A program made the position numbers and the translations under genes. A DNA stretch of 5,615 bases from a virus (Duplodnaviria; Heunggongvirae; Uroviricota; Caudoviricetes), in the IMG/VR virus record IMGVR_UViG_2695420369_000012, one strand, 5' to 3'. The stretch's first letter is position 1. Every line of letters begins with the position of its first letter. The notes beneath the pieces were generated by a model, which made no database searches, was not told where the DNA came from, and worked only from the letters and a program-made list of their open reading frames with translations. Below, piece after piece: positions 628-5,615 of the stretch.

Positions 628-1686
628 ATGCTTAATACTGTAAAAATATCCAGTTGTGAGTTAATCAACGCCGACTGCCTGGAATTTATCCGGTCGTTAC
701 CCGAAAATTCTGTTGACCTGATAGTCACGGACCCGCCGTACTTTAAAGTGAAGCCTGAGGGCTGGGATAACCAGTGGAAGGGCGACGATGATTACCTGAA
801 GTGGCTGGACCAGTGTCTGGCGCAGTTCTGGCGGGTGCTGAAACCTGCCGGAAGTCTTTACCTGTTCTGTGGTCATCGCCTGGCATCTGATATCGAAATC
901 ATGATGCGTGAACGCTTCAGTGTGCTGAACCATATTATCTGGGCGAAGCCGTCCGGACGCTGGAACGGATGCAACAAGGAAAGCCTGCGGGCGTATTTCC
1001 CCGCCACAGAGCGCATTCTGTTCGCGGAACATTATCAGGGGCCGTATCGTCCGAAAGATGCCGGGTATGCGGCGAAGGGCAGTGCACTGAAACAGCATGT
1101 GATGGCCCCGCTGATTTCTTACTTTCGTGATGCGCGAGCTGCCCTGGGGATAACGGCAAAACAGATTGCAGATGCCACAGGAAAGAAAAACATGGTGTCG
1201 CACTGGTTCAGTGCCGGTCAGTGGCAGTTGCCGAATGAAAGCGATTATCTGAAATTACAGGCGCTGTTTGCCCGGGTGGCAGAAGAGAAGCATCGGCGTG
1301 GTGAACTGGAAAAGCTCCACCACCAGCTGGTGGATACGTATACCTCACTGAACCGGCAGTATGCGGAGCTGCTGAGTGAATATAAACATCTGCGGCGGTA
1401 TTTTGGCGTGACGGTGCAGGTGCCGTATACCGATGTGTGGACGCATAAACCGGTGCAGTTCTATCCCGGGAAACATCCGTGCGAAAAACCGGCAGAAATG
1501 CTGCAGCAGATAATCAGCGCTAGCAGTCGTCCGGGTGACCTGATTGCAGATTTTTTCATGGGGTTGGGTTCGACAGTGAAAGCGGCACTGGCGCTCGGGC
1601 GTCGTGCAATTGGCGTTGAGCTGGAGACTGAACGTTTTGAGCAGACGGTTCGGGAAGTACAGGATTTAGTCAGCCAGAACGGATGA
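628..1686 (+). CDS. DNA methyltransferase, beta-class (motif IV DPPY near N-terminus, motif I FxGxG near C-terminus); most likely N6-adenine, N4-cytosine not excluded
   Basis: 352-aa ORF with DLIVTDPPYF at about residue 30 and HPCEKPAEMLQQIISASSRPGDLIADFFMGLGSTVKAALALGRRAIGVE at the C-terminus, the same order and layout as CcrM/YhdJ-type enzymes. A central insert of roughly 130 aa has an HTH-like stretch (ITAKQIADATGKK). Weak RBS. Confidence 0.9.
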   Translation: MLNTVKISSCELINADCLEFIRSLPENSVDLIVTDPPYFKVKPEGWDNQWKGDDDYLKWLDQCLAQFWRVLKPAGSLYLFCGHRLASDIEIMMRERFSVLNHIIWAKPSGRWNGCNKESLRAYFPATERILFAEHYQGPYRPKDAGYAAKGSALKQHVMAPLISYFRDARAALGITAKQIADATGKKNMVSHWFSAGQWQLPNESDYLKLQALFARVAEEKHRRGELEKLHHQLVDTYTSLNRQYAELLSEYKHLRRYFGVTVQVPYTDVWTHKPVQFYPGKHPCEKPAEMLQQIISASSRPGDLIADFFMGLGSTVKAALALGRRAIGVELETERFEQTVREVQDLVSQNG

Positions 1687-1726: not shown

Positions 1727-1802
1727 GGCCCTTTAGCTCAGTGGTGAGAGCGAGCGACTCATAATCGCCAGGTCGCTGGTTCAAATCCAGCAAGGGCCAC
1801 CA
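1727..1802 (+). tRNA. ileZ: tRNA-Ile2 (anticodon CAU, lysidine type; ileX/ileZ-like). Could be scored as tRNA-Met by anticodon alone
   Basis: Hand-folded cloverleaf: acceptor GGCCCTT/AAGGGCC, D-arm GCTC..GAGC, anticodon loop CTCATAA, T-arm GCTGG-TTCAAAT-CCAGC, encoded CCA. Near-identical to E. coli ileX as I recall it. Confidence 0.85.
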
Positions 1803-1809
1803 TCACATA

Positions 1810-1886
1810 CCGCCATTAGCTCATCAGGAAAGAGCGCCAGCCTTCGAAGCTGGCTGCGCGGGGTTCAAGTCCCCGATGGCGGTCCA
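1810..1886 (+). tRNA. tRNA-Arg (anticodon UCG)
   Basis: Acceptor CCGCCAT/ATGGCGG, anticodon stem CCAGC/GCTGG with loop CTTCGAA, T-arm CGGGG-TTCAAGT-CCCCG, encoded CCA. Confidence 0.8.
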
Positions 1887-1899
1887 TTATCTGCATCAT

Positions 1900-1976
1900 G
1901 CGTTGTTAGCTCAGCCGGACAGAGCAATTGCCTTCTAAGCAATCGGTCACTGGTTCGAATCCAGTACAACGCGCCA
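1900..1976 (+). tRNA. tRNA-Arg (anticodon UCU)
   Basis: Acceptor GCGTTGT/ACAACGC, anticodon stem ATTGC/GCAAT with loop CTTCTAA, T-arm ACTGG-TTCGAAT-CCAGT, encoded CCA. Resembles argU-type tRNA. Confidence 0.85.
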
Positions 1977-2016: not shown

Positions 2017-2236
2017 AAATGTCTCACAATTCAGACGGTTGACAGTTGTCTGTTTTGCGGGGAGTTTGTTAAAAGAAACTGGCATGGTGAATCCCCCTGT
2101 GCGGAGGGGCAATCAGCGAGTAGGTATATGGGATAATCGCGGATTCAGGTGCTGGTACTGAATTCACCGGGAGGCACCCGGCATCATGCAATGGCACATA
2201 GCGCCACTCTCCAGCCCTCTCCGGAGGGGCTTTTCT
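2013..2236 (+). repeat. conserved ~225-bp structured element, copy A (candidate small RNA with its own terminator)
   Basis: Matches 4566-4790. The 3' ~170 nt are near-identical (1 substitution, 1 indel); the 5' ~50 nt carry about 6 substitutions. Contains TTGACA at 2039-2044, an extended -10-like TGtTAAAAG at 2068-2076, several internal hairpins, and a terminal GC hairpin + U-tract at 2213-2236. Confidence 0.7.
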
Positions 2237-2463
2237 GTGCCGGATACATCACAGTTTCTGGAACCTTAGGTACTACAGTATCAGTCAGGGTGCTATATTT
2301 TCAGATGTGATGAAAGCCTGTCAGCAGGCAGGGCGTATCGGAAATGACCCAGTAGAGAAAACGTTGACTCAGATACCGGTGCTGAGTTACCGGGAAACCG
2401 GCATCACATGACCGCTATCCTGAGGTGTACTGGCAATAGCGGACACTACCATTTGTTCTTTTT

Positions 2464-3282
2464 TTAAGCAGCCATCTGATGATATTTTTCCCTGAAGGCT
2501 GCCGGGGAGATATTCCCCAGACGAGAGTGACGACGCTGACGATTGTAGAAAATCTCAATGTATTCCCGTATTACTGAGATGGCTTCATCCCGGTTATTAA
2601 AACGATAGTGGCTCAGGCTCTCATTTTTCAGCGTTCCCCAGAAGCTTTCCATCGGAGCGTTGTCGTAACAGTTACCTTTACGCGACATTGATGTTTTCAG
2701 ACCAGACTGCTCCTGTATGACCCGGTAATCGTATGCGCAGTACTGTGAACCTCGATCAGAGTGGTGGATTAGCCCGGCAGGTGGGCGCTGGCTCCTGAGC
2801 GCCATAAACAGGGCTTTACCTGTCAGCTCTTTTGTCATGCGCTCTCCCATGGCGTAGCCGACAATTTCGCACGTATAAACATCTTTGATGCCAGCGAGGT
2901 ACAACCATCCCTCCTGTGTGGCAACATACGTCAGGTCCGCCACCCAGACCTGATTTGGTGCTGTAGGAGCGAACGTCTGGTTCAGCAGATTTGGCGCAAC
3001 TGGCAGATTGTGGTTCGAGTTCGTAGTCGCTCTGAACTTGCGTTTCTGCTTACAGCGTAGCCTTAGCTCCTTACGAAGACGTGCCAGTCGGTCACGACCA
3101 ACGATGATGCCATTCTCTGCCAGCTCCGTCTGGAGCCGCCGGGTTCCATATGTTTCGCGAGTGCGGATATGTGCCACCTTAATCTCCAGTTTTAGCCGCT
3201 CATCACTTTGTTTTCTGTCTGAGGGTTCATGCTGTACCCAGTTGTAATAACCGCTCCTGGATACACCAAATACCTGACACAT
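2464..3282 (-). CDS. IS3-family transposase OrfB (DDE integrase core)
   Basis: 272-aa ORF with hallmark IS3 OrfB segments: VWVADLTYV...GWLYLA, HSDRGSQY, SMSRKGNCYDNAPMESFWGTLK, YNRQRRHSRLGNISP. Confidence 0.9.
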   Translation of the reverse strand: MCQVFGVSRSGYYNWVQHEPSDRKQSDERLKLEIKVAHIRTRETYGTRRLQTELAENGIIVGRDRLARLRKELRLRCKQKRKFRATTNSNHNLPVAPNLLNQTFAPTAPNQVWVADLTYVATQEGWLYLAGIKDVYTCEIVGYAMGERMTKELTGKALFMALRSQRPPAGLIHHSDRGSQYCAYDYRVIQEQSGLKTSMSRKGNCYDNAPMESFWGTLKNESLSHYRFNNRDEAISVIREYIEIFYNRQRRHSRLGNISPAAFREKYHQMAA

Positions 3283-3589: not shown

Positions 3590-3594
3590 CTACA

Positions 3595-3618
3595 ACCCGC
3601 CGCCGAGCGGGTTTTTTA
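3595..3618 (+). terminator. second copy of the tR'-like terminator, fused directly to the truncated IS end
   Basis: Same hairpin as 137-159 (ctacaACCCGCcgccgaGCGGGTttttttat), but with no pR' or Q upstream. Confidence 0.5.
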
Positions 3619-3656
3619 TTGCGGAATTAATTACGGACCGTTATTATTCTGCTCCC

Positions 3657-3732
3657 GGCCCTTTAGCTCAGTGGTGAGAGCGAGCGACTCATAATCGCCA
3701 GGTCGCTGGTTCAAATCCAGCAAGGGCCACCA
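3657..3732 (+). tRNA. ileZ: tRNA-Ile2 (CAU), second copy
   Basis: 76/76 identical to 1727-1802. Confidence 0.85.
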
Positions 3733-3739
3733 TCACAAA

Positions 3740-3819
3740 CCGCCATTAGCTTATCAGGAAGAGCAGACGACACGATAACAGGGTTGTTGGTGCGGGGGCG
3801 GGTCCCCGATGGCGGTCCA
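3740..3819 (+). pseudogene. degenerate tRNA-Arg-like gene: acceptor stem and D-arm kept, anticodon arm and T-loop replaced
   Basis: Same acceptor stem (CCGCCAT/ATGGCGG) and D-arm as the tRNA at 1810-1886, but the interior reads AGACGACACGATAACAGGGTTGTTGGTG and the T-loop is GCGGGT rather than TTCAAGT. I could not fold a canonical anticodon stem. Confidence 0.5.
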
Positions 3820-3832
3820 TTATCGGTATTCA

Positions 3833-3909
3833 GCGTTGTTAGCTCAGCCGGACAGAGCAATTGCCTTCTAAGCAATCGGTCACTGGTTCGAATCCAGTAC
3901 AGCGCGCCA
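3833..3909 (+). tRNA. tRNA-Arg (UCU), second copy
   Basis: Identical to 1900-1976 except one acceptor-stem position (A to G), which leaves a G-U pair. Confidence 0.85.
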
Positions 3910-4565: not shown

Positions 4566-4790
4566 TTTTAAATACTTCACAATTCAGGCGGTTGACTGTT
4601 GTCTGGTTTGCGGGGAGTTTGTTAAAAGAAACTGGCATGGTGAATCCCCCTGTGCGGAGGGGCAATCAGCGAGTAGGTATATGGGATAATCGCGGATTCA
4701 GGTGCTGGTACTGAATTCACCGGGAGGCACCCGGCACCATGCAATGGCACATAGCGCCACTCTCCAGCCCCTCTCCGGAGGGGCTGTTTA
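4566..4790 (+). repeat. conserved ~225-bp structured element, copy B
   Basis: Matches 2013-2236. Terminal hairpin CCCCTC tccg GAGGGG followed by ctgTTTaTaTT. Confidence 0.7.
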
Positions 4791-4820
4791 TATTGATTTT
4801 GTCAGATGTGAGTAAACTCC

Positions 4821-5156
4821 TTATGGACTTTGTTGTTTTAGTCCATAAGGACATATTTGCAGAGTGCAACGGTTATTAAAGCATTCATTCAATACGTTAT
4901 CTGTATTTGTAGGGCATTCCTGGCTATTTTTGATTGAATTCCAGAATGTTTTATTGAATGGTACTACGTTGTAAATGGTTACAGGTAGCACTTTGTTATT
5001 GAGCATGATGCCTGTGTGAGTCAGTGTAAATATACTTTCAGGAGGTAAGAAAGCATCCGATTGATACCAGATTATTAATTTTATTTTACTCCATATGACT
5101 GAAAAAGATATTCCGCATGATGGCTGGATAACTGTATCAATCACAATCCACTTCAT
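4821..5156 (-). CDS. iraM: IraM-like anti-adaptor protein (YcgW/ElbA family, RssB inhibitor that stabilises RpoS); 111 aa
   Basis: Strong Shine-Dalgarno (AAGGAAactaa-ATG). The N-terminus [19 protein letters not shown] and the C-terminal ICPYGLK with conserved cysteines (SQECP...C...C...ICPYG) match my recollection of E. coli K-12 IraM, at roughly 60% identity overall. AT-rich context. Confidence 0.65.
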
Positions 5157-5416: not shown

Positions 5417-5543
5417 ATGGCATTTAAACACTATGATGTTGTCAGGGCGGCGCCGCCGTCAGATCTTGCGGAAAAGCTGACACATAAACTGAAAGAGGGC
5501 TGGCAGCCGTTTGGTAGTCCGGTGGCCATAACCCCTTATACCC
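5417..5543 (+). pseudogene. DUF1737-like small phage protein, 3'-truncated by IS insertion
   Basis: ATG at 5417 with RBS GGTGGAAAG. MAFKHYDVVRAAPPSDLAEKLTHKLKEGWQPFGSPVAI resembles the small proteins that precede holin genes in lambdoid phages. The frame runs into the IS end at 5544 and picks up IS-derived residues. Confidence 0.4.
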
Positions 5544-5615
5544 TGAGGTGTACTGGCAATAGCGGACACTACCATTTGTTCTTTTTTTAAGCAGCCATCT
5601 GATGATATTTTTCCC
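5544..5615 (-). mobile_element. second copy of the same IS3-family element; only its terminal 72 bp fall in the window
   Basis: 5544-5615 matches 2421-2492 (TGAGGTGTACTGGCAATAGCGGACACTACCATTTGTTC...). Confidence 0.75.

Follow-up and report, generated by a model that had tools for sequence, protein, structure and literature searches.

A probable argN pseudogene between two intact tRNA genes in the late regions of Escherichia coli prophages

The closest described systems to the element reported here are the tRNA cassettes of Shiga toxin phages. Stx2e phages have been said to possess "only two genes" for tRNA, and one Stx2a phage a Met-Pro-Arg set (PMC7366253). The cassettes of stx2i phages have been annotated with a "tRNA-pseudo" or with a tRNA of unknown amino acid (PMC13641118). 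In Stx2a phage records, the gene lying between ileZ and argO is annotated as argN. We analysed an element that occupies this middle slot in a 5,615-nt stretch of viral DNA (the window). The element shares with argN its slot, acceptor stem, D-arm, T-stem, discriminator and CCA, but it carries an unrelated 28-nt block and the T-loop GCGGGT, and no detector calls it. We conclude that it is probably an argN pseudogene (hereafter, the relic), which would amount to a co-transcribed spacer between two tRNA genes that are under selection.

An element of the same kind is present in phage phiP27 (AJ298298, 17236-17326) and in a porcine STEC (NZ_CP122588). It lies between ileZ and argO, directly 5' of stx2e, and is either unannotated or labelled "tRNA-OTHER" by PGAP. 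Its block and its D-loop deletion are identical to those of the window relic, but it differs in its canonical T-loop, TTCGAGT, in a T-stem mismatch and in sharing its spacer types with the cassette that has intact argN. With the Rfam tRNA model (RF00005) it reaches 26.4 bits, short of the gathering score of 29 bits. Like tRNA pseudogenes generally, the relic descends from a tRNA gene, has lost its anticodon loop and T-loop, and has acquired independent further lesions among its copies. Unlike them, its first lesion was the substitution of a block and not point decay, and it is found in a third of complete E. coli genomes.

The prophage late region in which the relic lies also encodes agvB, an sRNA directed against GcvB (PMC4104026). 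The relic resembles AgvB in this location and in having a CA-rich sequence that is partly complementary to R1 of GcvB. However, the anti-sRNAs AgvB and AsxR are 51-60 nt long and have a conserved 3' domain and a Rho-independent terminator (PMC4104026), and the relic has neither of these.

The window and its two tRNA clusters

The window is pieced together from late regions of lambdoid prophages of E. coli (Table 1). Two prophage late regions have been joined in it by IS-mediated events, and none of the complete E. coli genomes covers at least 80% of the window in one place. The IS3-family element has no inverted-repeat partner and appears to be cut short at its junction with cluster 2; a 77-nt end of the same IS recurs at 5539-5615, the right edge of the window, where it breaks into a small ORF. 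A 37-nt repeat with the terminator hairpin AACCCGCCGCCGAGCGGGTT is situated both 5' of the methylase module (132-168) and directly 5' of cluster 2 (3590-3626), and marks the module boundary that the two prophage types have in common. One STnc100 copy lies 3' of each tRNA cluster, and the two are 94% identical over 219 nt. At another locus (L060), STnc100 is adjoined by an AgvB gene on the other strand; neither STnc100 copy in the window has AgvB. Just 3' of the second copy is a strong hairpin (4824-4858; CTCCTTATGGACT ... AGTCCATAAGGAC, with the loop TTGTTGTTT), which overlaps the 3' end of a minus-strand ORF (4821-5156) and may be a bidirectional terminator.

Table 1. Features of the window, with the argN relic and its parts
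Feature	Position	Strand	Evidence or remark
DNA methyltransferase ORF	628-1686		
tRNA cluster 1	1727-1976		
tRNA-Ile2 (CAT), cluster 1	1727-1802		ARAGORN
Intact argN (tRNA-Arg-UCG; ARAGORN TCG), cluster 1	1810-1886	+	ARAGORN; Rfam 58 bits; clean cloverleaf, z = -2.85; comparison reference
tRNA-Arg (TCT), cluster 1	1900-1976		ARAGORN
sRNA STnc100, copy 1	2053-2242		Rfam 123.6 bits
IS3-family element	~2416 to ~3575	minus	ORF 2464-3282, minus
Terminator hairpin	3594-3613		Listed by scan
Promoter-like site, TTGCGG-17-TATTAT	3619-3647	+	5' of cluster 2, after the terminator hairpin at 3594-3613; read by eye
tRNA cluster 2	3657-3909		
Intact tRNA-Ile2, anticodon CAT, ileZ type	3657-3732	+	ARAGORN; Rfam 72.5 bits; PGAP tRNA-Ile
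argN relic, 80 nt	3740-3819	+	Positional homologue of 1810-1886
Retained 5' part of relic: acceptor 5' strand (3740-3746), U8-A9, D-arm	3740-3764	+	
Replaced block AGACGACACGATAACAGGGTTGTTGGTG, 28 nt	3765-3792	+	Stands for 23 nt (position 26, anticodon arm, variable loop)
T-arm relic	3793-3808	+	Stem CGGGG/CCCCG kept; 6-nt loop GCGGGT at 3798-3803
Acceptor 3' strand, discriminator U, encoded CCA	3809-3819	+	Identical to argN
Intact tRNA-Arg-UCU, argO type	3833-3909	+	ARAGORN; Rfam 68 bits
sRNA STnc100, copy 2	4606-4795		Rfam 132.4 bits

ARAGORN calls three tRNAs in cluster 1 and only the two outer ones in cluster 2, and the Rfam tRNA model yields the same five matches. When the clusters are aligned, the Ile2 genes are identical at 76/76 positions and the Arg-UCU genes at 76/77, as expected from the original prediction, in which these two genes were said to be conserved. 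The relic begins 7 nt 3' of Ile2 and ends 13 nt 5' of Arg-UCU. The promoter-like site in front of cluster 2 is at the position homologous to a site reported by the scan in front of cluster 1 (TTGAAG-17-TATTAT, 1689-1717), and transcription may start from it.

A pattern scan of IMG/VR recovered 120 cassettes, of which 60 have the block, in 18 distinct alleles. In these 60 loci, ARAGORN calls the neighbours of the relic, Ile2 in 60/60 and Arg-UCU in 58/60, and both score 68-72 bits everywhere. Within the T-stem of Arg-UCU, each member of the pair 51-65 varies among the loci (C51G, n = 9; G65C, n = 10), which we read as a compensatory change on the basis of per-site counts and not of joint genotypes.

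Anatomy, alleles and distribution of the relic

The relic is homologous to argN. With 80 nt against 77 nt for the argN of cluster 1, its length is as originally described, and its retained parts have 2 changes in ~44 nt (~42/44 identical). Positions 1-19 differ by a single substitution, C13T, which maintains pairing as U.G. The D-stem (3749-3752 with 3761-3764; GCUU/GAGC) is paired in 18/18 alleles and encloses the loop ATCAGGAA (RNA AUCAGGAA), which includes G18-G19 and has one A fewer than that of argN. The acceptor stem has 7 bp (CCGCCAU/AUGGCGG), with U and CCA after it. Over the final 18 nt, comprising the 3' strands of the T-stem and acceptor stem, the discriminator and CCA, relic and argN do not differ. 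The middle gene had been predicted to keep only its acceptor stem and D-arm; both are indeed kept, but so are both strands of the T-stem.

The prediction that the anticodon arm and variable region are replaced by unrelated sequence agrees with our comparisons, in which the block was no more similar than shuffled sequences to every cassette tRNA anticodon arm and to the reverse complements of these arms. Derivation of the block from the original anticodon arm, or from another in the cassette, by mutation or inversion is ruled out by the same comparison. The block can fold with 5 bp around a loop of 11 nt, with 7-9 bp around a loop of 3 nt or, in the covariance-model alignment, as GACGA/UUGUU around a loop of 13 nt; none of these foldings provides a 7-nt anticodon loop with U33. 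The T-loop was likewise correctly predicted to be replaced. In the alignment of the clusters, TTCAAGT of argN corresponds to GCGGGT, and the window allele, with its 6-nt GCGGGU, is without the 7-nt UUCRANY T-loop. The predicted fold of the relic is cloverleaf-like with a long hairpin in place of the anticodon arm, and is no better than that of shuffles (z = -1.29), in contrast to argN (Table 1).

ARAGORN leaves 3740-3819 uncalled, and the Rfam tRNA model has no match in 3735-3825 even when these 91 nt are searched alone at E<=10. Other Rfam families give only meaningless matches to the relic (E = 4-6), and the scan lists no terminator or promoter inside it. PGAP, which uses tRNAscan-SE, annotated only tRNA-Ile and tRNA-Arg in 30/30 listed exact matches of cluster 2, placed no feature under the block core in 38/40 sampled genomes, and left the relic blank in every inspected record with the window-type allele. 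A canonical fold that was overlooked in folding by hand is ruled out, as ARAGORN, the permissive Rfam tRNA search and PGAP are all negative for the window allele.

The block-bearing alleles make up a series of decay. Two alleles (L060 and L022) have perfect acceptor, D and T arms, and the L060 allele carries the block in this otherwise intact scaffold. The phiP27-type allele has the block, the D-loop deletion and the T-stem mismatch, and the window-type allele has also lost the T-loop and has no Rfam tRNA score. Further alleles have U8-to-G together with a T-loop G-run of 9, 10, 12, 14 or 16, or have unpaired acceptor positions. Variants at the T-loop of the relic thus include TTCGAGT, CCGGGT and G-runs of 6-16. 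The most decayed form is the commonest form.

G-run lengths of 5, 6, 9, 10, 12, 14 and 16 are found among the genomes (the window at 3794-3798, and L025, L075, L083, L055, L074 and L116), and the alleles with long G-runs all carry U8-to-G too. This variation looks like slipped-strand expansion in one sub-lineage.

One argN allele (L120) has an intact anticodon arm but the T-loop AGCGGGT, and scores 44 bits. Conversely, some alleles combine the block with an unaltered T-arm. The lesion in the T-loop and the loss of the anticodon arm to the block are therefore independent modules, brought together by recombination, and the window allele joins at least two independent lesions, namely block replacement and T-loop change. 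The original prediction of an internally rewritten gene was therefore right that sequence has been replaced, but the replacement was not one event.

Other occupants of the middle slot are also variable. The argN of the window scores 58 bits, versus about 43-44 bits for the commonest argN alleles, which have an A.A mismatch in the acceptor stem, an A.C mismatch in the T-stem, G58 and the T-loop TTCGGGT. Low-scoring argN genes are located at L016 7828-7901, L007 2878-2951 and L120 10743-10816, and many annotated argN genes may be impaired. Phages Evi and PPompW have a Lys-UUU anticodon arm on the same scaffold (L002 1507-1583 and L003 1507-1582), and the L003 allele scores below the Rfam gathering score. 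A 64-nt deletion relic of the Lys allele is uncalled at 9 loci (e.g., L014, about 2777-2856). The Arg and Lys alleles of the slot likewise differ blockwise in the anticodon arm and share the rest of the scaffold. Blockwise switches of identity have occurred in the middle slot more than once, and these sequence comparisons suggest that block exchange in the anticodon arm may be a recurrent mode of change there. Spacer types are recombined relative to the alleles of the middle gene.

Cluster 2 (281 nt) is found at 99% identity or more in 1007 E. coli records, and all matches listed are exact. Phages that carry the relic include mEp460_ev081, several vB_EcoS phages and phiP27. Exact copies in many complete genomes and in phage genomes rule out an artefact of assembly or sequencing. 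A 35-nt core of the block is found at 2071 places in 1819 of 5426 complete E. coli genomes, where nearly all copies are at least 95% identical, versus 1001 complete genomes for the intact argN core. Of 185,579 species representatives, only that of E. coli contains an exact 27-mer of the block. Neither 50,697 phage records nor the remainder of the E. coli genomes revealed a donor of the block, and two scans of IMG/VR in which another base was imposed on the flank gave nothing but unrelated chance matches.

Patterns of variation within the relic bear on whether its structure is maintained. In neither hairpin register did the 18 alleles include a pair with both sides changed. The pairs of the block hairpin are all invariant with the exception of G35C, which breaks a pair in the minimum-free-energy register and is widespread, with O157:H7 among its carriers. 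Uncompensated acceptor mismatches, in the 5' or 3' strand, occur in 5/18 alleles. Some measures do indicate conservation. In the 60 loci, the only polymorphisms in the block are A33G and G35C, and polymorphic sites are fewer in the block than in the rest of the gene (2/28 vs 15/52, p = 0.025). Between the two clusters of the window, the retained parts have 2/44 differences and the spacers 6/20 (p = 0.009). Rare variants in the 60 loci, tallied from the variant listing, have a similar density in the relic (about 0.12 per site) and in the intact Ile2 (0.105), and do not set the two apart. The conservation of the retained parts and the block can be explained by a recent single origin combined with recombination of cassettes, and residual selection would give the same result. 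We attribute the pattern to a block that arose once and recently, and to scaffold and spacer variation that is older and has been shuffled among cassettes. A single, recent origin of the block fits its restriction to E. coli and the fact that few of its copies fall below 95% identity.

Origin of the relic and competing explanations

The original prediction had left the choice between a tRNA pseudogene and a tRNA-like RNA put to another use. The former is well supported: the element is uncalled by ARAGORN, Rfam and PGAP, it has neither an anticodon loop nor a T-loop, its alleles form a series of decay and they exhibit no compensation. Replacement by the block would have removed the anticodon arm and variable loop of argN and abolished decoding, and presumably also recognition by arginyl-tRNA synthetase, in which case the RNA would not be charged. 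The remainder of the gene would then have decayed differently in different lineages, with the window allele additionally losing its T-loop. The relic may persist because it is confined within about 100 bp between two tRNA genes under selection. It is probably transcribed with the flanking tRNAs, excised during their maturation and degraded, presumably having no function of its own, and prophage recombination could have spread it widely. A further point counts against a pseudogene: a clean swap of 23 nt for 28 nt by a self-complementary sequence, for which the searches above gave no donor, is an unusual route to one.

Bacterial RNase P cleaves minihelices made of acceptor and T stems, and separates some tRNA operons of E. 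coli. The relic could accordingly be imagined as a processing module, i.e., a non-decoding acceptor/T-stem minihelix with CCA that is kept for RNase P and separates Ile2 from Arg-UCU. The window allele has kept both stems, conservation is higher in the retained parts than in the spacers at the significance given above, and the short distances to Ile2 and Arg-UCU suit such a module. However, acceptor mismatches are present in 5/18 alleles, T-loop and T-stem lesions are frequent, and the flanking tRNAs possess their own determinants for RNase P and 3' processing. They are, moreover, intact next to the 64-nt deletion relic and in Lys cassettes with a 1-nt spacer. We therefore consider a processing module unlikely. 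A functional non-canonical tRNA with an expanded anticodon loop, used in frameshifting or unusual decoding at least by the alleles with an intact T-arm, seems extremely improbable. The L060 and L022 alleles, the "tRNA-OTHER" label that PGAP gives to the phiP27 type, and the persistence of a 5-bp stem in three different registers are compatible with such a tRNA, but the 11-13-nt loop has no U33 context, the C35 element that ArgRS needs would, by known identity rules, be gone, the phiP27 type scores below the Rfam gathering score, the commonest descendants have lost the T-loop too, and covariation is absent.

If the relic were a regulatory tRNA-like RNA, the excised piece might act as a GcvB sponge, with its CA-rich arm on R1 in the manner of AgvB, or as a decoy for a tRNA nuclease. 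Sponges derived from tRNA spacers exist in E. coli, as exemplified by 3'ETS-leuZ, and the relic resembles that RNA in its position between processed tRNAs in what would be, from the layout of the cassette, a single tRNA transcript. The sequence GACACGAUAACA can pair with UGUUGUUGUGUU of GcvB over 12 bp, 3 G.U pairs included, and the predicted gain from co-folding with GcvB is -8.5 kcal/mol vs 0 for argN. Nonetheless, the R1 duplex (-24.0) is within the range of shuffles (-21.7 +/- 3.4), 24% of which do as well, and the consensus R1 target CACAACA is absent from the block, whose CA-rich arm is already paired within the hairpin of the relic. An 11-mer, ACACGATAACA (window 3770-3780), is common to the block and to the promoter/5' end of agvB (L060 5418-5428, minus strand), and has no other context in 1.09 Mb of loci. 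This length of match is expected by chance, as exact matches of at least 11 nt to this pool were obtained in 86% of trials with shuffled blocks and unrelated 12-mers match too, and three bases of the 11-mer are 5' of the mapped AgvB 5' end. With both the duplex energy and the 11-mer within chance, a GcvB sponge and homology to AgvB are improbable; the Rfam AgvB/AsxR models also have no match in the window at E<=1. The relic has no terminator or U-tail, and the scan lists no terminator-like site 3' of it.

The near-invariance of the block and its very wide distribution are what a regulatory RNA would lead one to expect, but the lack of an Rfam family and of covariation, together with the outcome for GcvB, lends no support to the alternative use that had been proposed, and we regard a regulatory tRNA-like RNA as very unlikely. 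The more specific possibility that RNase P and RNase E free an ~80-nt RNA that acts in trans, as a sponge for a GU-rich core sRNA such as GcvB or as a decoy for a tRNA-directed nuclease, is very improbable. A study of Hfq crosslinking in O157 disregarded peaks lying up to 100 nt from transcribed features, and with them positions such as that of the relic.

Significance of the middle slot

The anomaly that was first noticed in cluster 2 is genuine and was accurately described, and its nature is most likely ordinary. A functional processed RNA would add a new prophage example to the regulatory RNAs that stem from tRNA operons, although nothing that we found supports this, and a role in trans would explain a near-invariant block in a third of E. 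coli genomes. As an argN pseudogene, the relic matters mostly for annotation: some of its alleles go unannotated, others carry the label "tRNA-OTHER", and it could be mistaken for a novel RNA. In the ileZ-argN-argO cassette beside Shiga toxin genes, only the outer tRNAs, which decode ATA and AGA, are kept. The middle slot turns over, being occupied by Arg-UCG, Lys-UUU, a deletion relic or the rewritten relic, and this turnover bears on arguments that phages retain tRNAs for codon supply.
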